Origin: Alphaproteobacteria bacterium
Lineage (GTDB): Bacteria; Pseudomonadota; Alphaproteobacteria; Micavibrionales; Micavibrionaceae
Length of the DNA: 64,000 bases
Direction: 5' to 3'
Assembly: GCA_020848095.1 (NCBI GenBank)
Contig: JADLAT010000002.1
Span: 21,293 to 85,292, forward strand
Shown: in pieces, positions 10,390 through 33,711 of the stretch
Layout: the number at the start of each line of letters is the position of its first letter
Numbering within the stretch: position 1 is the first letter of the stretch
Program-made: the position numbers and the translations under genes
The notes under the pieces: generated by a model
What the model saw: only the letters and a program-made list of their open reading frames with translations
Told to the model about the DNA's origin: nothing
Database searches by the model: none

Positions 10390-10465
10390 GCGCCCGTAGC
10401 TCAGGGGATAGAGCACTGGTTTCCGGAACCAGGTGTCGGGGGTTCGAATCCCTCCGGGCGCGCCA
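10390..10465 (+). tRNA. tRNA-Arg (anticodon CCG), CCA encoded
   Basis: Hand-folded cloverleaf. Acceptor GCGCCCG/CGGGCGC, anticodon stem CTGGT/ACCAG with loop TTCCGGA, T-loop TTCGAAT. Confidence 0.9.
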
Positions 10466-11442: not shown

Positions 11443-11521
11443 GGCACTTAAAATTCTCAGATAGTTTTCTAGATGGCCTATTTTATTTACATAGAAAGGT
11501 GGTACCTGTCAACATCTATAT

Positions 11522-11553
11522 GAAAAACCGCCGCAAAAATATCTACGGCGGTT
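11522..11553 (-). terminator. Rho-independent terminator downstream of the 11585-12934 gene
   Basis: On the minus strand: AACCGCCG, a 12-nt loop, CGGCGGTT, then a T run. Confidence 0.6.
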
Positions 11554-11584
11554 CTCTCAATAAATAAAGCAGAAAATAAGCGTA

Positions 11585-12934
11585 TTAAGGCGCTGGAGCA
11601 GCAGAAATCGCAATGGGAATCAAATTCTGCTCCCCAAATCCACATCCCGCCATCGCAGATTCTGGATCGCTAACTGGCTGGTACAGGTTACCGTCTTCCG
11701 CCCTGTGAGCTGACTTAATGCTAAACATTGCCATAAGCCCTTCCGTTACAGTTGGGGCGTCTTTCTGATCGGCCGCACCAGTTCCCCCTGCCGCCGCAAA
11801 GCCTTTCAAGCTACATTTTAGCGCCGTCATATAACCAGGCTCAACTTCACCGGTGTAAAGCTGTGCCGTCATTTGCTGCACCGTTCTGGTCCCCTCTTCC
11901 CGGCGCCCAGAAGCATCCCCCCCCCCCTGCAAATTATATTCATGTGTTTGCTTGGCTATCACATAGGCATGTGCCTGCCTCTGGGACTCACGCTGATCCG
12001 CATAAACCTGCCCGGTACACATAGCCAAAGCAATTTTACTATCAGACATGCCTCTTGTCATTGCAGCCCGCTCAAGAGGTTTGGCTATATACAACTCTTC
12101 AGCACTAAAAATAGCACCTGTTTCTTCATCGGATACAAAAACGCCAATAGACGGATGATAGGTAAAGTTAAGACCAGCATAGGCCAAAAAGACCATCCCT
12201 CCGGTAGCCCCTACGCTAAAACGGTTCACACATGTTTGAACTGCAAATCTGGCACTTTCAAGATAATGATTAGCCACATTTGTCGCCGCCCCCCACCTGC
12301 TGCTTACGACTGAATTATATTCAGTACTATTCCCGCTCGCAGTTGGGTTACTATGCAATTGGTTACCACTTGCCCCTGCTGCAGATGTTGTCTGTTGGCT
12401 GCTATTATCCGTAATAGTTTGATTAGTTTTCTGTTCTGTGTGGCTATTATCAATTTGAGTTTGAGTAGGGTTCAATTCTACACGGCTATTATCAATTTGA
12501 GTTTGAGTAGGGTTCAATTCTACACGGCTATTATCCGTAACATTACTTCCTGCCGTAGAAGTAGCGGCTCCACCATGGCCACCGGCTCCACCATGGCCAC
12601 CGGCCGAACTTAAAGCCCCAGGAGCGATAGTGACGTCACCACCATAACCAACACCTTTCCCACCAAGATCGCCAGTATTTATAACAGCTTCAGCGCCTGC
12701 ATTAGGATTCATATTTTCTATTGCAATCCCTGCATTCGCATTATTTTTATTCACGTTATCAATGTCAGGGGCAACGACAGTAGTAACATTAGTCTGGGGG
12801 TTAACTTGGGGGGTATTTGGAAATCCTGGACGATCATGTTCGTATCCGTGCCCACCTGTAGCCGAAGCGCTTGCGCTTGCCAGAACAATTGTTGCCGCAA
12901 CAAGATTTTGTTTCCAATTCTCCGTTAAACTCAT
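11585..12934 (-). CDS. Secreted repeat-containing hypothetical protein
   Basis: ATG 12934 is preceded by AAGGA. Signal-peptide-like LVAATIVLASASASA. Contains a GHGGAGGHGGA duplication and a perfect 14-aa tandem repeat, NSRVELNPTQTQID. No recognisable domain. Confidence 0.6.
   Translation of the reverse strand: MSLTENWKQNLVAATIVLASASASATGGHGYEHDRPGFPNTPQVNPQTNVTTVVAPDIDNVNKNNANAGIAIENMNPNAGAEAVINTGDLGGKGVGYGGDVTIAPGALSSAGGHGGAGGHGGAATSTAGSNVTDNSRVELNPTQTQIDNSRVELNPTQTQIDNSHTEQKTNQTITDNSSQQTTSAAGASGNQLHSNPTASGNSTEYNSVVSSRWGAATNVANHYLESARFAVQTCVNRFSVGATGGMVFLAYAGLNFTYHPSIGVFVSDEETGAIFSAEELYIAKPLERAAMTRGMSDSKIALAMCTGQVYADQRESQRQAHAYVIAKQTHEYNLQGGGDASGRREEGTRTVQQMTAQLYTGEVEPGYMTALKCSLKGFAAAGGTGAADQKDAPTVTEGLMAMFSIKSAHRAEDGNLYQPVSDPESAMAGCGFGEQNLIPIAISAAPAP
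12442..12535. repeat. Perfect 42-bp tandem repeat, about 2.2 copies, in frame
   Basis: GGCTATTATCAATTTGAGTTTGAGTAGGGTTCAATTCTACAC occurs at 12442-12483 and again at 12484-12525, with a partial third copy at 12526-12535. An adjacent 18-bp duplication, GGCTCCACCATGGCCACC x2, lies at about 12564-12600. Confidence 0.9.
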
Positions 12935-13167
12935 AATTCTACATCCTTTTTTTAAAAGCCTCATCCGATTATTTTATTCGGGAAGCAAGATTTTCAATAA
13001 CGCAATTCTCTTCTCATAAGCTTGAGTTTCTGTCAAGAATATTTCGTAAAAATTTTATGGTGAACGAAATTTCCGTAGAGTTGTTCATTTTCATTTGCAT
13101 AAAATAATAAATTTGTGTAAGAGAACCGCACGATATTAAATCTATATGACAAAACAAGGTCAGAAAC

Positions 13168-14529
13168 ATGATAACCCCGCCCCTCATCGAAACTTCTTTG
13201 CAAACAGGTATCTGCACAGTATCCCGCCCTGTAGGCACACAAGGCAATCAGGGACGGCTCCGTCAAGCATTCACCACCATGGCGCAAGCAACTAAAAATA
13301 CTTCACAGATACTAAAAACCCACCTGCGCACAATCCGCCGCGAAGGGCTGCGCGAGACATTCCACAAAGCTGCGCCTGCCTTGAAACATGCAGGATTGAG
13401 TCTGGGCACAATCTCAGCCGTTAAAATCGGAACCATGAGCGCCGCCGGGGCCATCGGAATTTCTGGCCTGAGCGCCGTAGCTCTGGGCGCTGCTGGCGTC
13501 GGGGTCTGCGCAACAAGCGCACAATATGCGCTTGATTGTTATAAGGCCCACAAGGCAGGCGAAAAACGCCCAGAGTTCAGCGTAAAAAATTATGGACTGA
13601 AAGCCCTGTTCACTAGTGCAAGCGCCGCGCTTGGCCTTGAGGCCCTGAATACAGACCCGGAAACGGTTCTGGATAAACTCAAAGCCGCCCTTGAGAAAGT
13701 CTTCACCTTTTTCTCGGGCACTGCGCAGGCCACGACAAATATTATAGCCAGACCAGAACTGAGCTCTATAAAAGATATGAGCCATATCCAGATGTACCCC
13801 CTAAACGATAACGCATCACCCCCAGTCTCCATACTGGATAACGCCGGAATAACACCAAGTGCTTTCTTCTCCGGGCTGAATACAGAAGGCTGGACACAAA
13901 AGGCAAAAGAGGCGCTAACAGCAGCGCAACGCGGACAACCCTGGGGCATGCAGGATATTGCGCACTTTGCAGCAAACGGCGAGCTTGGAAAGGGAATTAG
14001 CAGAAACTACGAATTAGCCGGGCAAGCCGCACTGATGGCAAAAGAATCAGCAGAAGCTCAGGGAAATCATAAAATTCTGGGCTTATCGACAACTTTCTTG
14101 AACGATCTCAGCAAAATAGGCGCTTTTTCGGAAAGCCGTCAGATCCCTCACCCGCTTGTCACAGAGACATCCACAATCGCCGCTTCACTCCCCCCAAAGA
14201 CCCACGAATGCGATCTGGAGCGAACCGTCATAAACAAATACAGCGCAATCACAATGAGTTGTACCAACCCGGACACAACCGTCAATATTGGTGATAAAAT
14301 CAAAGTTATGATTATGACATCAGATAAAATCCATAATGAAACTCATATTTATGAAATTGGCAAAAATCTGGCTGGTCGTGAAATGCCGCTTGGTTCACTG
14401 TTCAACGGAGTTTATATCGCCAATACCAATGAAAATATGGAGCACACACTTGCCCAACGTATTGCACGCAACGCTTCCAATGCAACAGAAGAACAGCTTG
14501 CTTCAGCGCTCCAGCCAAAATTTCCATAG
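13168..14529 (+). CDS. Hypothetical protein with N-terminal Gly/Ala-rich hydrophobic segments
   Basis: Long ORF in the AT-richer region. Hydrophobic stretch LSLGTISAVKIGTMSAAGAIGISGLSAVALGAAGVGVCA. No family recognised. The start is uncertain; ATG 13279 is an alternative. Confidence 0.5.
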   Translation: MITPPLIETSLQTGICTVSRPVGTQGNQGRLRQAFTTMAQATKNTSQILKTHLRTIRREGLRETFHKAAPALKHAGLSLGTISAVKIGTMSAAGAIGISGLSAVALGAAGVGVCATSAQYALDCYKAHKAGEKRPEFSVKNYGLKALFTSASAALGLEALNTDPETVLDKLKAALEKVFTFFSGTAQATTNIIARPELSSIKDMSHIQMYPLNDNASPPVSILDNAGITPSAFFSGLNTEGWTQKAKEALTAAQRGQPWGMQDIAHFAANGELGKGISRNYELAGQAALMAKESAEAQGNHKILGLSTTFLNDLSKIGAFSESRQIPHPLVTETSTIAASLPPKTHECDLERTVINKYSAITMSCTNPDTTVNIGDKIKVMIMTSDKIHNETHIYEIGKNLAGREMPLGSLFNGVYIANTNENMEHTLAQRIARNASNATEEQLASALQPKFP

Positions 14530-14570
14530 CGCACCCGCTCCGATACCCCCTATAAAAGAGTCCATGTTAG

Positions 14571-14780
14571 ATGGTTGACGATATTGTACAGGCGATTGAC
14601 GTAACGAAGAACACGTATTATCGCTGGCGCAAGGAATACGGGGGGATGAAGCATCATCAAGCCGAGGCACACATATTTAAGGCAAACAAGCCTTTCCAGG
14701 TGCCCTCGGAAAATCCGGACGGAGAAGCGCCCGTTGAATATAAAACGCTGGCAGAATTATACCAGAGTATAATCATATGA
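14571..14780 (+). pseudogene. Remnant of an IS3-family transposase OrfA (helix-turn-helix part only)
   Basis: IDVTKNTYYRWRKEYGGMK matches the conserved ...TYYRWRKEYGG... segment of IS3-family OrfA. The rest of the ORF is unrelated, and there is no OrfB or inverted repeat. Confidence 0.5.
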
Positions 14781-14907
14781 TTTAACTTGAAATAACGCCC
14801 ATTATTGGAAGATTGGTAAATAAAAATTTGCAAATTCCATAATTATGAAGTATAAGCTCCGGTATCAAAAATTGCAGGCAGAGTTTTAGAATTTTAAAGG
14901 GAAAATC

Positions 14908-15468
14908 ATGACTGAGTTGAAAGGTAGTAATGCGCAACTGACGCTCGCTCCGGAAGAACGGGCAGTTGTCGAGCAAGGTGGAATTAAAGTTCAATTCAAT
15001 GGCAGTGACAACGTGACCGTCTTGCAGAACGGTGTGACAGTTTATCCGCTTCCCGCCAATGGCAATGCCCCGCAAACGCAACCTGCACTTGCTAATACTG
15101 CTGCGGCGGAAGATCATCCTGTCGGAACCTTAGATGCACCGAACTGGCAATATGCTGGCATTTCACCCACAACCGGCAAGGATTACTGGTTGCAGATAGA
15201 AGATGCTGGAATTATGAATCACTTCAATGCTGTTTCCTATGCGAAAACAAATGGCTTTCGATTAATGTCGGGCGCGGAAGGCATACAGACATATAAACAA
15301 CAAGATCAGTTGCAAGGTGTTTTCAATAAAGAAATGGGCTACTGGCTGGAAGAACACGGCACTAGCAACGCCAGAGTCCAGTGGTTCGACTGCAACATCC
15401 GGGTCAACCTCCACAGGCTCAAAGACCGTCCGGTTCGTTGCGTCCGAGACGATGATCCCCGCTTGTAG
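14908..15468 (+). CDS. DUF1566 (Lcl C-terminal domain)-like protein
   Basis: AAGGGA lies upstream of the ATG. The C-terminal half has the pattern ...NGFRLMS.AEG...GYW...ARVQWFDCNIRVNLHRLKDRPVRCVR, resembling DUF1566 domains, which typically end in VRCVR. Confidence 0.5.
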   Translation: MTELKGSNAQLTLAPEERAVVEQGGIKVQFNGSDNVTVLQNGVTVYPLPANGNAPQTQPALANTAAAEDHPVGTLDAPNWQYAGISPTTGKDYWLQIEDAGIMNHFNAVSYAKTNGFRLMSGAEGIQTYKQQDQLQGVFNKEMGYWLEEHGTSNARVQWFDCNIRVNLHRLKDRPVRCVRDDDPRL

Positions 15469-15811: not shown

Positions 15812-18800
15812 CTAAACCACGCTCATCTGTCCATTAGAGAGCAGCACCTGCAAATCAAGACCAGCTTGACCTTCAACACGGACGAGGTCCTGCCAGTCAT
15901 AATTGGTGGCGCTGCCATCCCGGTCAATCTTGATAATCACATCACTGCCGGTATCCGTGGCCTGCACAAAATCAGAAAGCGTAGAGCTCAAAGGATCGTA
16001 ACCAGACAACATATTCTCAATAGAAAGACTATCGGCCGCGCCACCAGTGCCCCAATCACGAATAATGTCTGTGTCATCAATTAAGCCGTTTTCATTGAAT
16101 ATGGCGTTGCCATCAAAATGGAAGACATCGCTGCCTGTGCCGCCAAAGAGATAATCCAGCCCCTCCCCGCCATAGAGATGATCAGCGCCATCAAGACCAT
16201 ATAAAATGTCATTCGCCGTGCCGCCATAAAGCGTGTCGTTACCGGCATCGCCGCGCAGCTCATCATCCCCGGCACCGCCATAGAGCATGTCATCGCCAGC
16301 CTCACCGCGCAGATAATCATCACCGGATTCACCATAGAGATTATCGGCGCCTTCACCGCCATAAATACTGTCATTATCAAAGCCGCCATAAAGAGCGTCT
16401 GCACCATCGCCCCCGATCAACTTATCAGCGCCATCACCGCCATAGAGCGTGTCGTCGCCGGCCTCACCCCGTAGCTCATCCAGCCCCGCGCCGCCAGAAA
16501 GGATGTCATCACCATCGCCGCCATAAATCTTGTCAGCACCGGCATCACCGTAAAGGGAATCATCACCGCCAAAGCCCTTGATTTCATCATCACCCTCCCC
16601 GCCAAAAGCGGTATCATTAGCGTTCGAGCTGCCATCATCCGCTAAAATCGTATCATTGCCGCTACCACCGTAAATGGTATCAGCCCCGTCACCACCGCGA
16701 ATAGTATCATTCCCCCCGCGCGCATGGATAACATCATCCAGGGCTTTACCGCGCAGCTCTTCCCCCGCATTGGAGCCCAGAATAAAATCTGCCAGAGCGC
16801 CCGGCACATCACCATTCGCTATACCGCCAGAACCATCAGCAATAACCCACGCAGCAAAGCCCGATATATCCAGCGTTGTACCATCAGACAATGCGAGTGT
16901 TTCAATTACGGCTGCGCCCGCCAGAAGCTGGTCTTTCAATACCAGTCTGTTCGCAGCATTACCGGCAACCGTAATTACAAGATCATTACCACTAACGCTA
17001 AACCCAAGGTCTTCTATTGTAATTCCTTGAGCAAACGCAACGCTATCAATGCCGCTAATATCGGTAATTGTGTCCAACCCAATTGTGTAGAAATATCTAT
17101 CATCGCCCGCGCCGCCGGAAAGGGTGTCACCCCCCTCACCGCCATACAAAATGTCATTGCCATTGCCGCCTTGCAGGGTATCATTACCGCCCCCGCCAAC
17201 CAGCGTGTCATGACCTGCGCCGCCATTCAAAACATCATTACCGCCAAGGCCAATCAAAATATCATCGCCCGCGCCGCCAGTTTTAACATCATTACCAGCA
17301 GAACCCATGACCCAGTTTGCGAACTGCGCAAAGTTAAACCGAAAGCCATCTCCCAGCTCTATAAATTCAATCTTGACGTTACTGGCGCTGTTCTGGCCAT
17401 AAATAAGGGTAGAGGACGCGCCGCCATCAAGCGTGATTTCCAGATTATTACTGTTGGCCGCATTCGCAGCAAAACTGATATTCTCCAGACTCACGCCGCC
17501 GGAAAGCTTTAACACATCCGCGCTACCGGAAGAATCCAGAATATTGTCATTTCCAGCGCTCAGGACATACACATCATCGCCATCATAACCGCGCAGCGTA
17601 TCATCGCCCGCGCCACCATTCAGGATGTCATTGCCAGCATCCCCGTGCAAAGCGTCGTTGCCCTCATCGCCATTCAGAACGTCATCGCCTTTACCGCCGC
17701 GCAGCGTATCATTGCCCGCGCCGCCGTTGAGAACATCATCACTGCTATAGGTATCATTGTCAGAATTACCACCATTCAGCGTATCATTGCCATCGCCCCC
17801 ATAAAGCACGTCATTGTCTTCGCGGCCATAGAGCTTGTCATCACCGGCATCACCATAGATCGTATCCTGACCTTCACCGCCGCGAATAATATCATTCCCG
17901 GCATCACCATGCAGTTCATCATTCCCGTCATCGCCATAGACATTGATATCATCACCAGCGCCGGCATAAATAATATCGTTCCCACCATTGCCGCGCAGCG
18001 TATCATTGCCCGCACCGCCATAAAGCGTGTCACCACCTTCATTACCAAAGATTTGATCATCACCGCCATCGCCGTGAAGGATATCTGCGCCACGATTGCC
18101 GCGCAGCAAATCATTACCCTCACCACCGTTGATGATGTCATCATCATCATCGCCGCGCAGCGTATCTGCGCCCGCACCGCCATTTAAGGTGTCGTTACCT
18201 TTACCGCCATAGCCCTCATCGTTCCCATCATCACTATTGATAATATCGTCACCGTCCTTGCCGAACAACTTGTCATGCCCGCCAAGGCCGTAGATGACAT
18301 CATCGCCATCGCCCCCCACAATATTATCGCCACTCGAGGTGCCGTTGATAACATTCAGGGTTGTCAGCGGTATAAAAACGCCCGCAGAAAAATCATACGT
18401 ACCATCAGAAAATTGAGCATACTCAACCTCGTATAACCAGTCCACCCCGTCTAATCCAACATTATCTGTTATTTTCATAGCATTGACAGCATCTAGAATT
18501 GAATAATTTTGTGAAAAGCCCGAAAACACAGCCGTATCCTGCCCTAAGTCAGAACTATAAGAGTCGCCGCCATACAAAAAATCATTGCCTGCCCCACCAT
18601 CAAGAAAATCATCCCCAAACCCGCCATAAAGCGTATCATCTCCCGCTCCGCCATGAAGCTCATCATTACCGAGTCCTCCATCTAGTGTATCATTCCCCTC
18701 GTTTCCCAAAAGCGTGTCTTTACCAGACCCACCCAAAAGCCTACTACCAAAAGATCCCGCGATCAGCAAATCATCCCCAGTCCCGCCTTCTATGTGCCTT

Positions 18801-21409
18801 ACAGTGTCACCACCTGTGAGCTTGTCATTACCTGCTGCGCCCATTAAATACCCAAATGAAGTTGTTGCTGTATTTGCATCTATAACATCATCACCTGGCG
18901 TACCCTTTAGCTCATAAGGCGTTCCACGAATCCCTCTGTTATTCGGGTTATAAGCCCTAAGCACGTAATTTTCATCAAAATATCGCCCATCGGAAAATAC
19001 AATTTCAGGTGCTTCAGTAAAATTATCAGCCTTAAGCAAATCTGTAATAAAAATGGAGCCACGACCAATAACCTGAACAGATAAATCAAAGTGTATTCGC
19101 CCAAGTTCATCAACAGGCTCAACATTAACTTCATTAATTCTCACATCACCGGGCTCAATGAGGTGTTCCATAAACAAGACCCTAAGGTTATCGGGCCCAC
19201 CACCTGTAGAAATCACGTCATTACCACCACGGTAAGTAATAACATTGTTAGTCCTCAACGTAACGTGATCATCTCCCAACCCCAATTTAGCATAACCTGA
19301 ATCATTGAGGATGATATTGTCTCCATTGTTAGTGCCAATAATAACGGCAAACTGATCAACGCTATCTGTGTTTATACCATCAGTAACTTTCCCTGTTATA
19401 AAGTTGGCGGTGATACTTCGCTCTAGAGAAGAGTAGTCGTATGTTGCTCCTCCTTGATAAACTCGACCAAGATCATGAATTTCAATGACGGACCCTCGGT
19501 TAATATCATTTATTGTTTTTATAATTTCGACATTTATAACCTCTATAGCACCCTCTATTTCGATCTTATCAGTGCTCACAATCATGTCAGAACTCTCAAC
19601 AATTAGTGTATCAATTCCATCTCCACCATCATAAATCCGCCCCCCCAAATATAAACTATTGGTCGCAACAAAAATTTCATCATCAAAAGAAGTCGCTATG
19701 ATCCGTTCCATTCCATCAGCATCTTCCTGCGCACCACTGCCGTCTATGATGTCCGAAAATCTCGTAATTTGAATTCTTGCGGCCTCATCAGCATAGCTCA
19801 GCGTATCAAACCCTAAACCGCTGATGAACCTATCTACTCCTGCCCCGCCAATATAGATATCATTCCCAAAACCACCATACAGAATATCATCACCATCTCC
19901 GCCAACTAGGATATCATCCCCAGCACCACCGTTAAGGATATCGTTACCCATCTCTCCATAGAGCGTATCCTGCCCCTCTCCACCATGCAGAAAATCGGCG
20001 CTGGAACCGCCCCTGAGCGTATCGGCACCGCCCATTCCAAATTGTACTTGAGAGCCAAAAACGGTTTGCGTATTATCATCTCCCGCAGAGCCAACATAAT
20101 ACGTAAAGGATTGATCAAGTGTTGTCATCTCCCCCTCCTGCAACGCAAAAACAACCCGATCGGGAAAAACCACGCCTTGGGATGACAATGACATCGTACT
20201 ATAGATATTATTATAATCACCAGCGTGATTAAGGATGCCATTAAAGATAGCATCTCTGGCAACAATACGTGCGTCAAGACCACCCAGACCCACAGTATCT
20301 AGCCAGTAAGGCACGCTTAGATCAATAGAGAGACTATGTTCTGTCGCATTATTGGTGAAAGTCAAAAGACCATCTAGAGCGGGGTCACCCGCGCCAGCAC
20401 TCCTATCCTTCGCCAGCGCCAATCCCCCGGCGAAGGCGACGATATTTTTGCTGATATCGGTGCCGAGCGTTTCAACCACACTGCCCGCCCCTGCAAGGGT
20501 TATCGCACTGCCCAGATTATTCGCATCGTTATACAGCGCCCGAATAGCTGTATCACCGAACGGGCGTGTTGTGCCTTCGTCAATGGCGGAATAGGCGAGG
20601 ATGGTGCGTAATTTATCAGACGGCGAACTTGCGCCAGCCAAATCAACCCCAATAGATGTGGCAAACGTGTCATCGTATAAAACATCCCACATATATGAAG
20701 AGGCCGCCTTCCAATCCGTCTGCGCCCCGATTTCTGTCTTCGCATAAAGCCCCAAAACGAGCGTAGCTTGCGAGTGCAGATCAACAGCACCTAAATTCGA
20801 CTTATCACCAATATCGACATTAACCAAAGTACTTGGATTGCTAGGAGAAAAAGGTGTCATACCACTTAAAACTTCCCCCTCAACACGATAGGCACCGATA
20901 AAAATATTGCTGTAATCGCTAACCAATTCCGATGCCGCATCTTCATAATCCATGGAATCGTATATTAAAGCCCGCACTGCACTTGGCTGGCCGCTGATCG
21001 CCGCCACCAGCCCCGCCAGCCCGCCGCCCAAGGAATGACCCGTTGTTGTAATGGACGTGCTGGTTGCATTGACAACTTCGTTGTAAAAATCGATTGCCAT
21101 CTGCCCTTGCGCCCCTTCAAAACCACCGCCAAGCGGCCAGCCGTGAAGACCATCCTTCACCAAATCATCCGTACCGCGATACGCAATGGTCGTCTGCCCG
21201 TCATAACTATACGCCAAGGCGTAGAAACTTATATTTTCTGCATCCGCTTGACCCTTCGTCTGCAAAATTGTTGCAGTACCTATTTGAGTAGTTGGAAGAT
21301 CAAATGAATAGTTGTTCGTTCCAGGGTTATCTCCAAAAATCAAACCTGCACCATACCCACGGTTATAGGCATCCATACTTAATATTGCGTGCATCAAAGC
21401 ATTGTTCAT
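15812..21409 (-). CDS. Class-3 lipase domain fused to a very long RTX (hemolysin-type Ca-binding) repeat region, with a type I secretion C-terminal target domain
   Basis: N-terminus: ILSMDAYNRGY...ISFYALAYSYDGQTTIAYRGTDD...TTTGHSLGGGLAG (nucleophile elbow) ...GAVDLHS. Then dozens of GG.G.D.L nonapeptides. C-terminus: DIIRDWGTGGAADSLSIENMLSGYDP...VIIKIDRDGSATNYDWQDLVRVEGQAGLDLQVLLSNGQMSVV, resembling the VC_A0849-type T1SS target domain. Confidence 0.85.
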   Translation of the reverse strand: MNNALMHAILSMDAYNRGYGAGLIFGDNPGTNNYSFDLPTTQIGTATILQTKGQADAENISFYALAYSYDGQTTIAYRGTDDLVKDGLHGWPLGGGFEGAQGQMAIDFYNEVVNATSTSITTTGHSLGGGLAGLVAAISGQPSAVRALIYDSMDYEDAASELVSDYSNIFIGAYRVEGEVLSGMTPFSPSNPSTLVNVDIGDKSNLGAVDLHSQATLVLGLYAKTEIGAQTDWKAASSYMWDVLYDDTFATSIGVDLAGASSPSDKLRTILAYSAIDEGTTRPFGDTAIRALYNDANNLGSAITLAGAGSVVETLGTDISKNIVAFAGGLALAKDRSAGAGDPALDGLLTFTNNATEHSLSIDLSVPYWLDTVGLGGLDARIVARDAIFNGILNHAGDYNNIYSTMSLSSQGVVFPDRVVFALQEGEMTTLDQSFTYYVGSAGDDNTQTVFGSQVQFGMGGADTLRGGSSADFLHGGEGQDTLYGEMGNDILNGGAGDDILVGGDGDDILYGGFGNDIYIGGAGVDRFISGLGFDTLSYADEAARIQITRFSDIIDGSGAQEDADGMERIIATSFDDEIFVATNSLYLGGRIYDGGDGIDTLIVESSDMIVSTDKIEIEGAIEVINVEIIKTINDINRGSVIEIHDLGRVYQGGATYDYSSLERSITANFITGKVTDGINTDSVDQFAVIIGTNNGDNIILNDSGYAKLGLGDDHVTLRTNNVITYRGGNDVISTGGGPDNLRVLFMEHLIEPGDVRINEVNVEPVDELGRIHFDLSVQVIGRGSIFITDLLKADNFTEAPEIVFSDGRYFDENYVLRAYNPNNRGIRGTPYELKGTPGDDVIDANTATTSFGYLMGAAGNDKLTGGDTVRHIEGGTGDDLLIAGSFGSRLLGGSGKDTLLGNEGNDTLDGGLGNDELHGGAGDDTLYGGFGDDFLDGGAGNDFLYGGDSYSSDLGQDTAVFSGFSQNYSILDAVNAMKITDNVGLDGVDWLYEVEYAQFSDGTYDFSAGVFIPLTTLNVINGTSSGDNIVGGDGDDVIYGLGGHDKLFGKDGDDIINSDDGNDEGYGGKGNDTLNGGAGADTLRGDDDDDIINGGEGNDLLRGNRGADILHGDGGDDQIFGNEGGDTLYGGAGNDTLRGNGGNDIIYAGAGDDINVYGDDGNDELHGDAGNDIIRGGEGQDTIYGDAGDDKLYGREDNDVLYGGDGNDTLNGGNSDNDTYSSDDVLNGGAGNDTLRGGKGDDVLNGDEGNDALHGDAGNDILNGGAGDDTLRGYDGDDVYVLSAGNDNILDSSGSADVLKLSGGVSLENISFAANAANSNNLEITLDGGASSTLIYGQNSASNVKIEFIELGDGFRFNFAQFANWVMGSAGNDVKTGGAGDDILIGLGGNDVLNGGAGHDTLVGGGGNDTLQGGNGNDILYGGEGGDTLSGGAGDDRYFYTIGLDTITDISGIDSVAFAQGITIEDLGFSVSGNDLVITVAGNAANRLVLKDQLLAGAAVIETLALSDGTTLDISGFAAWVIADGSGGIANGDVPGALADFILGSNAGEELRGKALDDVIHARGGNDTIRGGDGADTIYGGSGNDTILADDGSSNANDTAFGGEGDDEIKGFGGDDSLYGDAGADKIYGGDGDDILSGGAGLDELRGEAGDDTLYGGDGADKLIGGDGADALYGGFDNDSIYGGEGADNLYGESGDDYLRGEAGDDMLYGGAGDDELRGDAGNDTLYGGTANDILYGLDGADHLYGGEGLDYLFGGTGSDVFHFDGNAIFNENGLIDDTDIIRDWGTGGAADSLSIENMLSGYDPLSSTLSDFVQATDTGSDVIIKIDRDGSATNYDWQDLVRVEGQAGLDLQVLLSNGQMSVV

Positions 21410-22122
21410 TTCTCTTCTCCTTGCTTAAATCTTCCATAGTGTAAAATATTTGATAATTTCAATGAATGTGTTGTTTTGCTACCATCCAAAGTTCCTTGTT
21501 TCACTTGAGGCAACCAAGGAAGAATTTCATTTATTTTCCACGTCACCGGCTCATCCACAATCTCGATGACTATGTCTTTGATTTGCATACCATCACCAAA
21601 CTGTTCTGCAAATCGCCTGACAGGCACTTGTTTTTGTGTCTCTGAATTGAATTTCCAGCCTTGAACAAGCGTCACAGATTTCGGATCATCCCTCTCTGTA
21701 AAAGTTACAAACATCGGCCAGTTCTCTTCCGGCAATGCTGCCTTTGCCCCTGTTTTTAGCCTGTCAAAACCTTCTGTGGTATTGGAAGCATTTGCAACGC
21801 CAAATGCGCTATATAGTTCTCCGTACGATCCATGCTCGATAAGCCCAAAAACCACGCCGCGCGCTCCTAAATCCACCACAACCGCTTCACCCTTAACGCT
21901 GCTGATCCGTGCGCCCGCTTCCGGAATTTTTTCACCAAATATCGTGTTATCACGGTTCGTGACCTCCCGCACCGCCGAGCCACTTTTGATCCCCTCCGGC
22001 GTTTCAATATTGATCGTTATTTTGTAATTCCAGGAATATTGATCAAGACCAACTTGAACAGCCGCATAAGCCGCAACAACGCTGACGACTAAAATCCCCA
22101 AAGCAATGAAACTTACTTTCAT
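21406..22122 (-). CDS. Signal-anchored hypothetical protein, partner 1 (candidate cognate immunity/accessory protein of the lipase)
   Basis: N-terminal TM/signal segment MKVSFIALGILVVSVVAAYAA. ATGA overlaps at both ends (22119-22122 and 21406-21409). Paralogous to 22666-23382, sharing YSW.YK.T..IETPEGI.SGSAVREV and GEAVVVDLG.RG. No known family recognised. Confidence 0.6.
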   Translation of the reverse strand: MKVSFIALGILVVSVVAAYAAVQVGLDQYSWNYKITINIETPEGIKSGSAVREVTNRDNTIFGEKIPEAGARISSVKGEAVVVDLGARGVVFGLIEHGSYGELYSAFGVANASNTTEGFDRLKTGAKAALPEENWPMFVTFTERDDPKSVTLVQGWKFNSETQKQVPVRRFAEQFGDGMQIKDIVIEIVDEPVTWKINEILPWLPQVKQGTLDGSKTTHSLKLSNILHYGRFKQGEEK

Positions 22123-22676
22123 GCTGCTTTCCTTACATCTTGTTCATTGTCATTCACGGCTTTAGCATAAAGCATGTCTTCCCGCTCCGCCAGCCCGCCA
22201 CCGAGAGAGTGACCTGTCAGGCTCACATCCCCCGAATAAATATTACCAAGACCGCCGCCGAGAGAATGCCCGGTAAAAGAGATATCGGCCGTATAGGAAT
22301 TTTCCTGACCGCCAATTACATTATGATAAAACGCGAAGGCCATTTGCGCCTGCCGGGCCTGTGTCGACCCGCCACCAATGAACCAGCCATTCCAGACATC
22401 ACCATCAGTCCACAGGCTGGTCCAGCTGCCAAAGGGATCGTCCGTCCCGCGATAGGAGATGATCTTTTTACCGTTATAATCATATGCAAGGGCATAAAAG
22501 CTAATATCGTCATCCAACCTATCATTTCCGTCCTGAAAAATCCTAGAATCAACTACTATGGTTGCATTGCCAACTTGCACTCCAAAATCGCTGGGCAACT
22601 CAATAGCGCGATCATACCCCCTATTGTATGAGTCCATGGATAGAATAGCATTGAAGACATTAAGATTAAGTGTCAT
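22119..22676 (-). CDS. Truncated class-3 lipase N-terminal cassette (L2); ends shortly after a duplicated GHSLGGGL motif and lacks the Asp/His part
   Basis: Aligns with residues ~1-135 of the 1,865-aa protein (AILSMDSYNRGY, ISFYALAYDYNGKKIISYRGTDD). It then reads FTGHSLGGGLGNIYSGDVSLTGHSLGGGLAERE... and stops. Confidence 0.7.
   Translation of the reverse strand: MTLNLNVFNAILSMDSYNRGYDRAIELPSDFGVQVGNATIVVDSRIFQDGNDRLDDDISFYALAYDYNGKKIISYRGTDDPFGSWTSLWTDGDVWNGWFIGGGSTQARQAQMAFAFYHNVIGGQENSYTADISFTGHSLGGGLGNIYSGDVSLTGHSLGGGLAEREDMLYAKAVNDNEQDVRKAA
22204..22257. repeat. 54-nt repeat, copy A, spanning lipase nucleophile-motif codons
   Basis: 51 of 54 positions are identical to 23475-23528 in my hand alignment. 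It encodes GNIYS(G/A)DVSLTGHSL. Confidence 0.85.
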
Positions 22677-23382
22677 TTTTTCTCCCTATTTTAAATTGAA
22701 GCAAATCAGCTTTTAGCATTTTTTCTTTTAAACTAGCTTCTTGCCACCACTCTTTAAAATTTTCGTAATATTCATCCGTTAAATATTCATCAATTTTTTG
22801 AGTGATTGACTCCTCCGTCATTTCAACTGTAATGCTCTTTAACCTCACGCCTCCTCCGAAATATTCCTCAAAACTGTCAACTTGATCTTGTCCGTTTGCA
22901 TATGTTTTATCAACATAAACAAGCTTTACAGTTTTTGGATCGTTCATATCTGTGAACGTTACCATTTTGGGACAATAAGGATGGCCATCACATTTAAATT
23001 CCGTCTTACTTCCAACAGGTAATTTTGCAGCATTTTCATATCCTGTAACATCAAAAGCACGCAAAACATCGGCATAAGCCCTATCATCGATCAAAGCAAA
23101 AATCTTGCCGCGCTCACCAAGGTCAACAACGACAGCCTCTCCGGAAACATTTCTTTTTGTCGAATAATGAGGCTTCTTATTAACATCACTCCAACCAATT
23201 ACTTTTTGGGTAATATCAACCTCCCGCACCGCAGAGCCGCTTCTGATCCCCTCCGGCGTTTCAATCTCCACCGTCATTTTATAGCGCCAGCTATAAACCT
23301 TATCCTGCTCCCGTTGCGATGCCGCAAACGCCACAGCCCCCGCAATCAGAACAAGTGCCAGTGTCATAAATCCATATTTCAT
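22666..23382 (-). CDS. Signal-anchored hypothetical protein, partner 2 (paralogue of 21406-22122)
   Basis: ATG 23382 is preceded by GAGGGA; the ORF track starts at 23400. TM/signal segment MKYGFMTLALVLIAGAVAFA. Shares the ETPEGIRSGSAVREV and GEAVVVDLGERG blocks with partner 1. Its 3' end overlaps the start of L2 by 11 nt. Confidence 0.6.
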   Translation of the reverse strand: MKYGFMTLALVLIAGAVAFAASQREQDKVYSWRYKMTVEIETPEGIRSGSAVREVDITQKVIGWSDVNKKPHYSTKRNVSGEAVVVDLGERGKIFALIDDRAYADVLRAFDVTGYENAAKLPVGSKTEFKCDGHPYCPKMVTFTDMNDPKTVKLVYVDKTYANGQDQVDSFEEYFGGGVRLKSITVEMTEESITQKIDEYLTDEYYENFKEWWQEASLKEKMLKADLLQFKIGRKNDT

Positions 23383-23413
23383 GAATTCCCTCGTTCGCAT
23401 AATTTATTCAGCA

Positions 23414-23699
23414 CTAATGTATGGTTGTGTGTGTGTCAAACTTTTTACTGACCATCCCACCAAGACCACCACCAAGAGAGTGACCTGTCAGGCTCACATC
23501 AGCCGAATAAATATTACCAAAACCGCCGACGACTTTCTGATAAAACGCGAAAGCCAATACACCTTGGTCGACATCCGGCGCCCCAACACCAACACCATAA
23601 CGATGCAAAGTATCTAAAGGTACATTATCCGCCCCCCCGGTAAGCGATAATAGTTCCCGCACCGCCTATATTATAAGAACCGCTACAGCCTGATGAGAA
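23414..23699 (-). pseudogene. Third class-3 lipase 5' cassette (L3): lacks its own N-terminus, frameshifted, ends after GHSLGGGL
   Basis: In one frame, ...SYNIGGAGTIIAYRGGG stops. In the next frame, GADNVPLDTLHRYGVGVG...AFAFYQKVVGGFGNIYSADVSLTGHSLGGGLGGMV. Together these align with lipase residues ~65-135. The frames join at a C7 run (G7 on the coding strand) at 23632-23638. Confidence 0.7.
23475..23528. repeat. 54-nt repeat, copy B (see 22204-22257)
   Basis: Same as copy A with 3 mismatches. Confidence 0.85.
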
Positions 23700-24098
23700 T
23701 ACGTTTAATTCCAGCCCTTTCATTATTTTATATGCGTAATTATCGCTCCAGCGCTCTTTATTGAGTTCGTGCCATTCCAGCGCCACGGCTTTGAAGGTGT
23801 TCTCTACTTTGCGGATAGCTTGGCGTTTGTTGTCTTCCTTGTGCGCCATGGGGTCTATGGGCGGGTTTTGAAGCAAAAGGCGTTTTGCGTTGTCTCTGGC
23901 CTGCCGCGCCTCTGCCAGCGATATGAGGGGATATTGCCCTATTGAGAAAACCTTCTCTTTTTTCAGGTAACGATATTTGAGTTGCCAGAGCTTTGAGCCG
24001 TTTGTTCTCACCAGAAGGTACAGGCCCCCACCGTCAAACATCTTGTATTGCTTGTCTTTGGGTTTGGCGCTTTTACAGGCTAAATCGCTTAATTTCAT
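23700..24098 (-). pseudogene. int: Tyrosine integrase, P4-like; N-terminal (DUF4102-type) ~133 aa only, catalytic domain missing
   Basis: MKLSDLACKSAKPKDKQYKMFDGGGLYLLVRTNGSKLWQLKYRY...FKAVALEWHE...WSDNYAYKIMKGLELNVF is the typical N-terminus of tRNA-associated island integrases. Homology stops near nt 23700, where the ORF runs into lipase-cassette sequence. Confidence 0.8.
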
Positions 24099-24268: not shown

Positions 24269-24343
24269 TGGTGGGCGGTACAGGGATCGAACCTGTGACC
24301 CCTAGCGTGTCGAGCTAGTGCTCTACCGCTGAGCTAACCGCCC
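24269..24343 (-). tRNA. tRNA-Val (anticodon GAC), CCA encoded; anticodon loop reads TCGACAC (C at position 33)
   Basis: Reverse complement: GGGCGGT TA GCTC AGCGGTA GAGC A CTAGC TCGACAC GCTAG GGGTC ACAGG TTCGATC CCTGT ACCGCCC A CCA. The cloverleaf is perfect. Confidence 0.85.
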
Positions 24344-24883: not shown

Positions 24884-25843
24884 CTACCCCCCGACCCCGG
24901 CTGCGGAAGCCTGAATACCGGCTGGACCCAAAATAATGATAAACAAGGCAGGAAGGAAAAATAAAATCATCGGAACCGTCAGCTTTGGCGGCAGGGAAGC
25001 CGCCTTCTGCTCTGCCGTAGCCATCCGCATTTCCCTGATTTCGTCAGACATAACGCGCATAGCCTGAGAAACCGAAGTCCCGTATTGTTCCGCCTGAATA
25101 AGCGCCGTAGCAAAACTTTTTGCCGCACCACTTCCCACACGGCGCGCAAAGTCCTGCAAGGCCTGCCGCCGATCATTCAACATCGCCATTTCCGCGCTTA
25201 AAATTCCAAGCTCCTCAGCCAGAACCTCAGAATGATCCGATACTTCCTGCGCCACGCGGTCAACCGTTTGCTCCAGGCCAATCCCCCCCTGCACACAAAT
25301 CAACATCATATCCAGCGCATCCGGAAAGCTCAGATTAATTTCCTGCTGGCGTTTAAGGATACGGTTTTTAATCAAAATATCAGGCAATTTATACCCGCTC
25401 ACCGCCGCAACAAAAATAAAAAGCAGCTTCATAAGGCTGGAAATTTCTTTCTCGCTGCCGGAAATTACCATCATGGTCAAGACGCAAAACACCAAGGGCA
25501 GCACCCCTTGCGCAATCATGAATTTTATAGGTGCGGATGGATTACGTATCCCGGCCTGCAGCATTTTATCACGCATTTTTTCGCCCATCTCACCGGCCAT
25601 CTTTTGCATCTTATAAAGAGAGGCCATGGAATCCCGTGCAGATGTCGTTGCTTGCTGTGCGCGGCCACGGTGAATGCTGCCGTCTTTTGTTGCTTCAAAC
25701 AAAGCCTTTCGTCGTTTTTCAATAACGGCTCTAAAGCGTTCTTTTTTCTCTGACCGGTTTAAAAACGGCAAGGCAAACCCCACGAACGAAGCCGCAGCAA
25801 AAACAGCGCTCAAAAGCGTTATAACGGTTTGATCATCCATCAA
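24884..25843 (-). CDS. tadC: Flp pilus assembly inner-membrane protein TadC (T2SS F family)
   Basis: Polytopic membrane protein immediately after tadB in the cpaF-tadB-tadC order. T2SSF-like segment FPDALDMMLICVQGG. Confidence 0.85.
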   Translation of the reverse strand: MMDDQTVITLLSAVFAAASFVGFALPFLNRSEKKERFRAVIEKRRKALFEATKDGSIHRGRAQQATTSARDSMASLYKMQKMAGEMGEKMRDKMLQAGIRNPSAPIKFMIAQGVLPLVFCVLTMMVISGSEKEISSLMKLLFIFVAAVSGYKLPDILIKNRILKRQQEINLSFPDALDMMLICVQGGIGLEQTVDRVAQEVSDHSEVLAEELGILSAEMAMLNDRRQALQDFARRVGSGAAKSFATALIQAEQYGTSVSQAMRVMSDEIREMRMATAEQKAASLPPKLTVPMILFFLPALFIIILGPAGIQASAAGVGG

Positions 25844-25853
25844 AGCCTCCCAA

Positions 25854-26837
25854 TTAAATTTTAAAGTTAATCATTACTTTCATCACAAGGATGCCGATCA
25901 ACATCCAGACAATCGCAATCGTCAGCAAAATTTTTCCAAACGGGTCGGTAAATAAAACACTGATATATTCATAGTTTGTAAAATACATCCCCGTAGCCAC
26001 GAGCAAAGGCAAAGCGCCAATAATGCTGGCCGAGGCCACCGCCTCGGAAGAAAGCGCCTTGATCTTGCGCTTAAGCCGAAAACGCGAACGAATAACGCCT
26101 GAGAGATTCATCAAAACCTCCGAAAGAGAAGAACCGGTCTGCGCCTGAATAGAAAGGCCCGTGGCAAACATCTGCATCTCGGTTAACGGCATCCGGCGCG
26201 TAGCCAGCAATGCGGCCTCATGCAGCGGCACCCCGATTTTCTGCTGGTCATATATGCGTGACATTTCCTCCCCCACCGGGCCGGAAAATTCACGCGCAAT
26301 CATGGAAATCGCCTCAGCCACCGGCATACCGGCCTTAAGCAGCCTGACTGTTGCCTCCAGAGCATCGGGAAACTCCGAAAGAAATTTTTTCTGACGCTTC
26401 GCGGCAAAGCGTTTGAGCATAAAACGCGGCACACCAAGCAACCCTATAACCCCTGCCAATAAAATAATATGGGGGGCCTGCCCCATAATCTTCGCCATAA
26501 AAACAAGAAAAAACATGGATATAAAAGATAAAATCCAGAATTTTTTAATGGAAATAGACAGGCCTGCCTGCTCTATTTGCTGCGAAATTGGTGTCTTCTT
26601 TTTATCTGATTTTTCATCGCCCTCACGGCTGTCTTTCAGCTTTCTGGCAATTTCTGCTCTGCGTTTATCCTGCTGCCCCTTTTGAAAGCCAGAGCTCTGC
26701 GTTACGGCACCCTGCCCCCTGATTTTTTCCAGCATCTTTTTTTTGCGCGCATTATCTTTGTTCACAATGAACAATAGCCCCGTCGCAACCGCAATCAGAG
26801 CAATAAAAGCAACCAGCACAATTTGTATCAGGCCCAT
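25854..26837 (-). CDS. tadB: Flp pilus assembly inner-membrane protein TadB (T2SS F family)
   Basis: Follows cpaF. T2SSF-like segment FPDALEATVRLLKAGMP. Confidence 0.85.
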   Translation of the reverse strand: MGLIQIVLVAFIALIAVATGLLFIVNKDNARKKKMLEKIRGQGAVTQSSGFQKGQQDKRRAEIARKLKDSREGDEKSDKKKTPISQQIEQAGLSISIKKFWILSFISMFFLVFMAKIMGQAPHIILLAGVIGLLGVPRFMLKRFAAKRQKKFLSEFPDALEATVRLLKAGMPVAEAISMIAREFSGPVGEEMSRIYDQQKIGVPLHEAALLATRRMPLTEMQMFATGLSIQAQTGSSLSEVLMNLSGVIRSRFRLKRKIKALSSEAVASASIIGALPLLVATGMYFTNYEYISVLFTDPFGKILLTIAIVWMLIGILVMKVMINFKI

Positions 26838-26882
26838 TTCAAACTATCCGCAAAAAATATATATGCCGCACGAAAACGGCCA

Positions 26883-28448
26883 CTAATCAAATGCCTCCTC
26901 CATTGCATCCAAAACCAGTTTATCAACGCCGAATTGGCGCGCCTTATCAAAAAATTTCGGGCGCAATCCGGTTGATCTATGCTTCGTGATCAATTTCCCC
27001 TTATCGTCTTCACCTAATATATCGAGCACAAAAAGATCCTGCATGGACACGACATCGCCTTCCATGCCTGTAATCTCTGTGACATGCGTAGTTTTACGCG
27101 ATCCATCGCGAAGACGCTGCACCTGAATAACCACATTCACCGCCGAGGCAATCTGTTCCCGCACCGCCTTTTGTGGCAAATTCAAACCACCCATCGCGAT
27201 CATATTTTCCATACGACTCAGGGCTTCTCGCGGGTTATTGGCATGCACCGTTCCCATAGAACCATCATGCCCCGTATTCATCGCCTGCAGCAAATCAAAC
27301 GCCTCCGGCCCGCGCACCTCCCCCACAATAATCCGCTCCGGACGCATCCGCAGACAATTCTTAACCAGATCACGCATCGTGACCTCACCCACGCCCTCAA
27401 GATTGGGAGGCCGCGTCTCCAGCCGAACAACATGCGGTTGCTGCAACTGTAGCTCACAGGCATCCTCACACGTAATGATCCGCTCACCCTGTTCGATATA
27501 GCGTGTAAGACAATTCAGCATTGTCGTCTTGCCGGAACCAGTCCCACCGGAAACCAGAACATTCACCCGCGAGCGTCCAACCGCCATAATCAGCTTAGCG
27601 CAGGAAGGCGTCATAGAGCCAAATTCCATCAGCTTTTCTAACGTCAGCTTATCTTTGGTAAATTTCCGGATCGTCATACACGCGCCGTCCACAGCCAAAG
27701 GCGGAATAATAACATTCACGCGGCTGCCGTCGGGAAGTCGCGCATCGCAAATCGGAGAGGATTCATCAACCCGGCGACCAATGGCGCCGACGATACGTTG
27801 ACAAATCGTTGTTAAATGCTGGTTATCTCTAAACTTTATAGACGCTCTCTGGATTCTTCCAGACACCTCTATATAGGTCGTACCCGGGCCGTTGATCATG
27901 ATGTCGGCAATATCATCGCGCTCTAACAATTCTTCCAATGGCCCGAAGCCAAGCATATCATCAGCGCATTCCTTCGCTATGGATTGCAGCTCTGCCGGGG
28001 TCAGGTCAAGATTACGAAAGCGGGCAATTTCCTCAACTGCGGAATAAACCTCATCCCGCGCCGATTTGGAATTCATACCGGCCAGCGCCTTTAAGTCAAT
28101 CCCGTCCCGTAAATCCAGCCAAATGCGGTTACGCGCCCTTTGCAGTCGTAGCGCAGTAATGGAATCGCTGCTCCCCGTCCCTGCATTTCCACGTGCCTCA
28201 TCTGCGGCACTATCAATAAACCCTTGAGCGAAAGGGTCTTCCTCTGTTGAGATTTTTTGTTTTTCTTTATCTTTTTGTATGGGGCTTTCGGAAGCCTTTT
28301 CAACCGCAACATTTTCTTTCAATGCCGCAGGCTTCTCCACCAAAGATGGAGCCATATCTTCACTCGGTTTTGGCTTTTCCGGAGGCTTGCTCGCAAAAGA
28401 GTCTGATCTTTGCTGCGCATCAGAAGAGGATGTTTTTTTACCAAACAT
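26883..28448 (-). CDS. cpaF: Flp pilus assembly ATPase CpaF/TadA
   Basis: Walker A VSGGTGSGKTT plus the secretion-ATPase Asp/His boxes (RIITCEDACEL, MRPERIIVGEVRG, NTGHDGSMGTVHAN). Confidence 0.95.
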   Translation of the reverse strand: MFGKKTSSSDAQQRSDSFASKPPEKPKPSEDMAPSLVEKPAALKENVAVEKASESPIQKDKEKQKISTEEDPFAQGFIDSAADEARGNAGTGSSDSITALRLQRARNRIWLDLRDGIDLKALAGMNSKSARDEVYSAVEEIARFRNLDLTPAELQSIAKECADDMLGFGPLEELLERDDIADIMINGPGTTYIEVSGRIQRASIKFRDNQHLTTICQRIVGAIGRRVDESSPICDARLPDGSRVNVIIPPLAVDGACMTIRKFTKDKLTLEKLMEFGSMTPSCAKLIMAVGRSRVNVLVSGGTGSGKTTMLNCLTRYIEQGERIITCEDACELQLQQPHVVRLETRPPNLEGVGEVTMRDLVKNCLRMRPERIIVGEVRGPEAFDLLQAMNTGHDGSMGTVHANNPREALSRMENMIAMGGLNLPQKAVREQIASAVNVVIQVQRLRDGSRKTTHVTEITGMEGDVVSMQDLFVLDILGEDDKGKLITKHRSTGLRPKFFDKARQFGVDKLVLDAMEEAFD

Positions 28449-28465
28449 ATCTGACTACGCCCCTC

Positions 28466-29719: not shown

Positions 29720-29803
29720 GGATCGCCGTAATCGCCTCTTATAATTGATTGTGTGTTACCCAGACTTTAGCCTACCGAGTATAACCGACAATTGGTTAAC
29801 ACA

Positions 29804-30445: not shown

Positions 30446-30464
30446 CTTAAATCCTGCTCTCACC

Positions 30465-32042: not shown

Positions 32043-32129
32043 AAAACGAAGACTTCCACTTAAAAATACAAAAGAGCCGTAAAACTACGCAGGGAACTTG
32101 GTTAATCACAAGGCCAGAACAAGAACGCT

Positions 32130-33014: not shown

Positions 33015-33069
33015 AATTTAAAGCCTCATCCGATGCGGAAATTTCATTAAAAGCGCAAGAACGCCGCCG

Positions 33070-33618: not shown

Positions 33619-33656
33619 ATCCGGACCATTATAAAACAGAATAAAACATCAGGGAA

Positions 33657-33692: not shown

Positions 33693-33711
33693 CTTTCATA
33701 TTCAAAAAATA

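Follow-up and report, generated by a model that had tools for sequence, protein, structure and literature searches.

Tandem units of a predicted exported protein and a 5' lipase stub upstream of an RTX lipase gene suggest an undescribed toxin-and-antidote system of the type I export pathway

In a 64,000-nucleotide stretch of the genome of an Alphaproteobacteria bacterium of the Micavibrionaceae (GenBank assembly GCA_020848095.1, contig JADLAT010000002.1, positions 21,293 to 85,292; hereafter the window), the gene of a very large RTX lipase, L1, is preceded on its own strand by a stack of units, each composed of a gene for a partner protein of about 240 residues and the 5' part of a lipase gene. 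This layout is real and non-random, and it recurs in many bacteria, several of which are predatory. It suggests a toxin-and-antidote system, so far undescribed, that is exported by the type I pathway. The explanation that we favour, with moderate confidence, is that L1 is a phospholipase toxin exported by a type I secretion system (T1SS), that the partner is a periplasmic immunity protein, and that the arrays represent a repertoire of immunity genes that recombination has reshaped.

On the minus strand, the array reads tRNA-Val, a truncated integrase fused to a lipase-head remnant (L3), partner 2, a lipase stub (L2), partner 1, and L1. L1 (15812-21409; 1,865 residues) follows partner 1 (21406-22122; 238 residues), which follows L2 (22119-22676; 185 residues) and partner 2 (22666-23400; 244 residues). 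L3 occupies 23414-23690, with an open reading frame (ORF) at 23414-23662. Partner 2 and L2 overlap by 11 nt; two ATGA overlaps of 4 nt join L2 to partner 1, where the tail of L2 covers the start codon of the partner, and partner 1 to L1. The initial annotation, made from the sequence alone, had given the order from L3 to L1 with the same coordinates and overlaps, and all of them were recovered. It had also described both stubs as homologous only to the first ~135 residues of L1. In a hidden Markov model (HMM) of the lipase head, L2 matches positions 2-135 (E = 3.9e-54) and L3 positions 82-148 (E = 2.2e-17); L3 is truncated at its 5' end as well, which the initial annotation had missed, and corresponds approximately to L1 residues 68-131 plus a tail of 15 codons. 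As originally noted, the two stubs stop 23 (L2) and 15 (L3) codons past the motif GHSLGGGL, and both end before the residue equivalent to His212 of L1, which they therefore lack.

The recurrence of this layout was assessed with the head and partner HMMs in species-representative genomes, which provided 79 loci, or 80 with the window (locus numbers such as L012 are distinct from the gene names L1 to L3). The 79 loci come mostly from Micavibrio-like alphaproteobacteria, and also from Bdellovibrio-like metagenome-assembled genomes (MAGs), sphingomonads, rhizobia, and Rhodospirillales. The cultured carriers include Sphingopyxis sp. LK2115 (L019), in which a full pair is present, and Roseospira, Bosea, Rhizobium, and Bradyrhizobium, in which partner genes occur. 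Altogether, 105 partner genes were counted. A full lipase head, nearly always running into RTX repeats, follows 18 of them; behind 39 lies a stub in which the lipase gene has retained its 5' end, with HMM end points ranging from 25 to 315; 42 have no head, and the remaining 6 are limited by a contig end. The head or stub begins no more than ~20 nt from the partner stop codon in 57 of the 99 scorable partner genes, and for the heads this close spacing holds almost everywhere. Another partner lies behind 16 of the 39 stubs, and the other 23 are terminal, with no partner behind them. At least 15 loci contain several partners (L001, with four units, L006, L012, L014, L024, L026, L050, L060, L072, and others) and all 39 stubs are anchored at the 5' end, which bears out the upstream stacking of partner-plus-stub units that had been proposed from the window alone. 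In L012, an array of the order partner, stub, partner, lipase-RTX has immediately upstream of it an operon encoding TolC (OEP), an ATP-binding cassette protein with a C39-like domain, and HlyD; the neighbours of other loci include an integrase, a relaxase, and a type I restriction-modification system. That every one of the top 120 relatives of L2 is short was considered as a sign that stubs vastly outnumber full genes; it was discounted because the exact sequence of L1 is absent from the collection, many contigs measure only 1-3 kb, and the tail of L2 biases the ranking, and the locus census is the better estimate.

The two partners of the window are divergent paralogues, as first proposed (41% identity, E = 8e-43; partner 2 matches the partner HMM with E = 1.6e-74). 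The family profile gathers 4,889 clusters at 50% identity (E <= 1e-3). Partner 1 is identical to NCBI entry MCC6597232.1, a 'hypothetical protein' from an alphaproteobacterial MAG. No relative was found in Pfam, NCBIfam, PADLOC, or the PDB sequences, in agreement with the earlier statement that the protein belongs to no assignable family. The AlphaFold model of partner 1 (predicted local distance difference test, pLDDT, 86; predicted template modelling score, pTM, 0.81) comprises an N-terminal hydrophobic helix at residues 2-24 followed by a beta-rich domain. AxA-type sites (AYA/AV and AFA/AS) can be read in the partner sequences, and the proteins are predicted to be exported to the periplasm via Sec. 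The fold search on this model that the initial annotation had suggested returned no significant match. Foldseek gave weak LolA/LolB/RseB-like hits only (best E = 4.6e-3, template modelling score (TM-score) ~0.15), and these were treated as no match; a profile match in the PDB to a designed 'circular tendon repeat protein' was judged spurious.

Nearly all loci have intact partner ORFs, the split genes of L041 and L067 being exceptions. Paralogous partners inside one array share a median identity of 47%, and recent duplicates are few. Solitary partners sometimes adjoin housekeeping genes. One array, in L016 (8178-11505), is a recent tandem amplification of a partner-only unit: it has four partner genes, and the three that share 89-92% identity have stubs of ~12 codons ('LFNAILSMD*') with near-identical leaders between them. 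Partner-like domains are also present inside longer ORFs in L054 (8945-11500; 851 residues), L062 (9737-11146; 469 residues), and L068 (1082-2557; 491 residues), which may be fusions or the result of mis-called starts.

L1 combines a class-3-lipase-like head (residues 1-440; 20090-21409), an RTX repeat region of ~1,340 residues (16070-20089), and a type I secretion C-terminal target domain (residues 1781-1862; 15824-16069), all on the minus strand, and this composition, read initially from motifs, is now backed by structural and profile matches. The GGxGxD nonapeptide repeats characteristic of RTX proteins are present in 25 stretches (PF00353, 492 bits) and coincide with the DNA repeat families D1-D4, and the C-terminal domain is recognized by TIGR03661 with 30 bits (cut-off 17.6). 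The AlphaFold model of the head (pLDDT 84, pTM 0.89) matches fungal class-3 lipases and feruloyl esterase (1usw, 6qpp, 4tgl, and 6xok) with a Foldseek probability of 1.0 and target TM-scores of 0.40-0.48. The nucleophile elbow GHSLGGG lies at residues 124-130 (GHSLG at 124-128), and among 36 aligned heads Ser126 and His212 are invariant. On the basis of alignment, the catalytic acid is probably Glu177 or Glu179, within a VEGE motif that aligns with a Glu-containing motif of Tle, a type VI secretion system (T6SS) effector of Enterobacter cloacae. Head-to-head identity ranges from 35 to 73% along the whole length, and in the consensus of heads the most variable segment, which adjoins the partner, is bounded by NRGY and GFYALAY. 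The Mbeg1-like model scores 21.1, exactly at its cut-off of 21.1.

Tle (7UBZ) is also the sole sequence relative of the head in the PDB (phmmer E = 1e-4 over residues 99-184, which include the elbow and 'YRVEGE'). It is an antibacterial phospholipase A1/A2 that acts in the periplasm and whose catalytic triad is Ser-Glu-His; immunity to it is provided by Tli, a lipoprotein of the periplasm, and the cytosolic form of Tli activates Tle (PMC11470151). In addition, precomputed family matches assign relatives of the head to PF26363 ('Phospholipase-like'), and in Luteimonas this domain is fused to X-Tfes_XVIPCD, the signal of antibacterial type IV effectors. The homology to Tle, the PF26363 relatives, and the XVIPCD fusion together mark the head family as a toxin domain that serves several delivery systems and is mounted here on an RTX/T1SS carrier. 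A locus of Luteimonas panaciterrae (L084, 4255-8470) contains two tandem PF26363 and XVIPCD lipase effectors flanked by genes for ankyrin-repeat proteins of 219 residues, which mirror the ankyrin Tli of E. cloacae. By comparison of these neighbourhoods, the same toxin domain has a different and unrelated neighbour family in type IV secretion system (T4SS) and T6SS contexts.

The stubs are not a class of decay products. When their first 95 residues are scored against the full-head HMM, the median is ~92 bits, compared with 86 for full heads (p = 0.054). The nearest neighbour of a full head is a stub in 13 of 18 cases, and that of a stub is a full head in 10 of 17, so the two groups are interspersed by similarity; the best stub-to-full-head identity is 73%. 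Almost all stubs have an open frame with a start or a stop coupled to their neighbours, and frameshifted stubs also occur, for example in L048. The initial annotation had itself named random decay as the finding that would speak against it, and these scores and the mixed clustering do not point in that direction.

Recombination has left traces both in the window and elsewhere. L2 contains two copies of the nucleophile elbow, at 22249-22318 and 22192-22261, the second of which corresponds to an additional HMM match at positions 120-136. The DNA of this second copy (70 nt; repeat family D5) is 90% identical to the elbow of L3 (23463-23532) and only 63% identical to the first copy of L2 itself, and it is a scar of recombination between units. 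Similarly, two pairs of stubs from unrelated metagenomes (L080 77-565 with L081 43-516; L082 32-562 with L083 276-776) are 100% identical from the motif GFYALAY to the end of the stub and strongly divergent upstream of this motif; their downstream partners are 100% identical in one pair and 86% in the other. Because of these mosaics, recombination with breakpoints at conserved head motifs is considered to be ongoing, with the L2/L3 scar as its local example. A ratio of non-synonymous to synonymous substitution rates of ~0.44, calculated on close stub pairs (P0140/P0143 and P0156/P0187), was set aside as meaningless, as these pairs are mosaic (3' two-thirds identical, 5' third divergent).

L3 shows a more complex junction. 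At ~23700, its sequence is joined to integrase codons, and the integrase frame enters lipase-like sequence (YNIGGAGTIIAYRG) before it stops at 23625. The 'IIAYRG' homology of L3 lies in this integrase frame; near 23640, seven consecutive G residues bring a change of frame, and past them the homology resumes in the new one, with 'ADNVPLD...GHSLGGGL' and the 15-codon tail. With 6 G instead of 7, an integrase-L3 fusion ORF would be open, and an assembly error of the MAG or slippage is possible at this site. A sigma-70-like sequence, TTCTCA-18-TATAAT, lies exactly on the integrase/L3 junction (23699-23670, minus strand) and is a consensus-level match only. A promoter and terminator scan of the array found no convincing internal terminator.

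The 3' ends of the stubs also share a pattern. Many of them (among P0121-P0240) end in '...ANDN x(8-10) AA*', overlapping the ATG of the next partner, and this tail is joined either after GHSLGGGLAG(L/F)VG or after FDNMxFExA; the tail of L2 (22119-22190), EDMLYAKAVNDNEQDVRKAA, is of the second type. A promoter -10 box and a recombination site were considered for this tail and rejected in favour of a simpler explanation, namely a native head segment, FDNMxFExAAN(D/N) at approximately residue 165, followed by the ribosome-binding leader of the partner. The sequence 'EDMLYAKAVNDN' in L2 agrees with this explanation. The tail may derive from one old truncation that spread, or from a recurrent junction at GGCGGC microhomology.

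T1SS substrates bypass the periplasm of the producer and remain unfolded in its low-calcium cytosol. According to the mechanism that we favour, L1 would be a phospholipase or lipase toxin exported in one step by a T1SS encoded elsewhere in the genome, and its catalytic head would be N-terminal because the secretion signal and the RTX repeats fill the C-terminus. The partner would be the cognate immunity protein, made first through translational coupling to L1, exported by Sec, and located in the periplasm, where it would neutralize lipase arriving at the periplasmic side from siblings, competitors, or the cell's own secreted pool. As the exported toxin does not pass through the periplasm of the producer, a periplasmic antidote would be useful only against incoming toxin, which argues for an antibacterial role, with bacterial prey or competitors as the presumed target. 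The partner-plus-stub units would then be former toxin-immunity pairs whose lipase genes were shortened by recombination or deletion, often at conserved motifs such as the G-rich elbow, and whose partners were retained as an immunity repertoire; stubs that remain open and coupled would allow the downstream genes still to be translated.

An immunity role for the partner, already put forward as a candidate function in the initial annotation, is suggested by several features: the pairing with the lipase is close and conserved, the head is homologous to antibacterial effectors, the partner family is highly diverse, partners occur alone or with dead stubs, their paralogues within arrays have diverged, and their predicted location is periplasmic. 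Several points weigh against this explanation. No T1SS gene lies within the 64-kb window. The similarity of the head to Lipase_3 in Pfam (19.4-21.9 bits) stays just under the gathering threshold of 22. No similarity of the partner to the ankyrin Tli, to Tli1-5, to the Lif foldase, or to another known immunity family was found, and the homologous T6SS and XVIPCD lipases have ankyrin-repeat neighbours instead of the partner family. A protein of 1,865 residues with RTX repeats would need a route across the outer membrane of its target. The conservation of the stubs at the level of full heads is not explained by a simple status of remnants. Finally, co-variation between the partner and the downstream head is weak (Mantel r = 0.19, p = 0.0025); it is compatible with immunity, does not discriminate, and could arise from linkage alone.

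Three other explanations have to be weighed. The first extends the immunity hypothesis and does not exclude it: the partner-plus-stub units would be a reservoir of cassettes, comparable to pilS cassettes or to CDI/Rhs orphans, and recombination at NRGY, GFYALAY, YRGTD, and GHSLGGG would bring a variable N-terminus, and with it the linked partner, into the gene that is expressed, thereby changing the specificity of toxin and immunity. The sharp breaks of both mosaic pairs at GFYALAY, the elbow scar in the window, the conservation of stubs interspersed with full heads, and the position of the most variable head segment beside the partner are all in line with such exchange. However, no stub sequence recurs as the 5' end of a full-length gene, even the closest pair being as distant as stated above, many stubs comprise only 25-47 residues and are too short to carry much specificity, and neither a dedicated recombinase nor a repeat site was found for such an exchange. 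We consider this explanation unlikely.

Neutral wreckage, in which tandem pairs on a dead genomic island would have lost their lipases through random deletion, leaving stubs without a role and partners that are perhaps decaying too, seems to us improbable to a similar degree. It accounts well for the wide spread of stub ends, for the majority of terminal stubs, for the frameshift of L3 and its fusion to a truncated integrase, and for the occasional frameshifted stub or split partner. It accounts poorly for the undegraded sequence of what the stubs retain, for the open frames and coupling of nearly all of them, for the intact partner ORFs at nearly all loci, and for the recurrence of the layout in Micavibrio-like, Bdellovibrio-like, sphingomonad, and rhizobial genomes. 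The least probable explanation is that the partner is a lipase-specific chaperone, activator, or secretion helper, on the model of the Lif foldases of T2SS lipases or of the cytosolic Tli that activates Tle, with arrays made of duplicated operon fragments: despite its strict adjacency to and translational coupling with the lipase, the precedent of a Tle-family lipase that needs its neighbour for activation (PMC11470151), and an N-terminal anchor reminiscent of the Lif topology, a dedicated helper would be useless to the 42 partners without a lipase and to the 39 that have only a catalytically dead stub, T1SS substrates skip its predicted site, it matches neither Lif nor any other Pfam family, and arrays of diverged paralogues are typical of immunity repertoires rather than of chaperones.

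The initial annotation had described the locus as a displacement array. Its toxin-immunity logic and the mirrored stacking of orphans that it recognized stand, but displacement is no more than a candidate mechanism: stub ends are scattered over a wide range, most stubs are terminal, without an intact lipase, and deletion or unequal crossing-over with the partner kept accounts for these observations no less well than displacement driven by insertion.

Among the closest known systems is the pair formed by Tle and Tli (PDB 7UBZ/9CYS), and with it the Tle/Tli effector-immunity pairs in general. Both systems have a homologous phospholipase domain of class-3-lipase-like fold and, beside it, a gene whose product is exported (in the present case by prediction); orphan copies of this adjacent gene occur in both. 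They differ in delivery, which here would rely on RTX repeats and a T1SS instead of a T6SS, and in the N-terminal position of the head. In addition, the neighbour is here a beta-rich protein of ~240 residues, encoded upstream, translationally coupled, and without similarity to the ankyrin-repeat Tli, and the tandem arrays with toxin 5' stubs are a feature of the present system only.

In their architecture, the arrays resemble those of contact-dependent inhibition (CDI; cdiA-CT/cdiI), Rhs, MafB, and the T6SS orphan-immunity arrays (auxiliary clusters of Vibrio cholerae and acquired interbacterial defence (AID) islands of Bacteroidales), in which immunity-type genes and toxin fragments are likewise stacked beside one complete pair, with diverged paralogues, mobile islands (probable in the present case), and footprints of recombination. 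Modules of an orphan toxin fragment with an immunity-type gene do lie beside the main gene here, in reversed polarity, and immunity-type genes without any toxin also occur, as counted above. Unlike in CDI, Rhs, and MafB, the stubs are 5' fragments that lie upstream, and export would proceed via a T1SS. Moreover, all heads and stubs of the 80 loci match a single head HMM, whereas the classical systems carry unrelated tips on a constant stalk; no sharp demarcation motif such as VENN or PxxxxDPxGL is present, and the stub ends are variable. With one head family and no boundary between constant and variable parts, the arrays are not a polymorphic toxin system in the CDI/Rhs sense, and in this strict sense the polymorphism implied by the initial annotation does not hold. 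Only tentatively would we propose that swapping of N-termini in these loci is the mirror-image counterpart of orphan switching in CDI and Rhs.

Family I.3 T1SS lipases (TliA/LipA of Pseudomonas fluorescens and LipA of Serratia) and other RTX proteins share with L1 an N-terminal lipase, C-terminal RTX repeats, and an uncleaved T1SS signal. The family I.3 lipases, however, have a mass of ~50-65 kDa, are encoded without a partner gene, and do not count as toxins; L1 is 3-6 times larger, and its head is of the Tle-like family. The genomic islands of Micavibrio aeruginosavorus encode 'hemolysin-related' RTX proteins, which have been put forward as putative predation factors (PMC3189940). As described, these proteins resemble L1: they are large, island-borne, equipped with a T1SS signal, and found in a predatory alphaproteobacterium, and many of the loci studied here come from Micavibrio MAGs; neither a lipase head nor a partner gene or arrays were recognized in them (PMC3189940). 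In literature searches that did not cover all journals, no description of RTX-lipase/partner arrays was found, and likewise none of an N-terminal displacement array for a T1SS or RTX lipase, as the initial annotation had stated.

The array forms the integrase end of a block with a G+C content of 45-48%, compared with 50-56% in the flanks. Features expected of a genomic island are present in the form of a tRNA-Val gene (anticodon GAC; 24269-24343, minus strand; ARAGORN), a truncated integrase, and the drop in G+C content. The integrase remnant (23700-24098, minus strand) retains the first ~135 codons of a P4-type enzyme (Arm-DNA-bind_3, E = 1.3e-23; Phage_int_M, positions 1-34 only). The island with the array was likely integrated at the tRNA-Val gene, because this remnant lies immediately 3' of that gene. 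A search for repeats in the window found no att-like direct repeat of at least 16 nt of the tRNA-Val gene and did not reveal the limits of the island. The right flank belongs to the core genome, with Tad pilus genes, FtsH, purA, and others; it is marked by a Tad/Flp pilus cluster just past the tRNA-Val gene (24884-35706, minus strand), with two T2SSF proteins, a T2SSE ATPase, a secretin, and TadE/G-like proteins.

On the other side, the low-G+C block contains four ORFs of 285, 459, 453, and 186 residues (10585-15468) with no match in Pfam, NCBIfam, or PADLOC; in the 459-residue ORF, 18 nt are duplicated exactly in tandem (12565-12600) within a stretch rich in Gly and His. Further upstream, an ORF of 3,099 residues (974-10273, plus strand) combines YadA-head repeats with a C-terminal Peptidase_S74 intramolecular-chaperone domain, in the manner of a phage tail fibre or of a trimeric adhesin, and ends just before a tRNA-Arg gene (10390-10465). 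The anti-phage defence models of PADLOC gave zero matches in the window.

Should the partner prove to be an immunity protein, the large RTX proteins secreted by the type I pathway would join the carriers of immunity-protected antibacterial enzymes already recognized in type V, VI, IV, and VII secretion, and a function would be given to a currently unannotated family of ~4,900 clusters (50% identity). The mirrored arrays also offer a test of the idea that the place of the toxin domain, at the end of the protein not needed for export, determines where orphans accumulate. More generally, it is possible, though we would hold it as doubtful, that RTX phospholipases with a ~240-residue partner form a widespread and overlooked class of antibacterial or predatory toxin-immunity systems, whose upstream units act as a functional store of cassettes and exchange the N-terminus and the linked immunity gene by recombination at head motifs. 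Many of the carriers are Micavibrio- and Bdellovibrio-like predators, and in these bacteria the system may explain how epibiotic attack on the membranes of prey proceeds without harm to the predator itself or to its kin.

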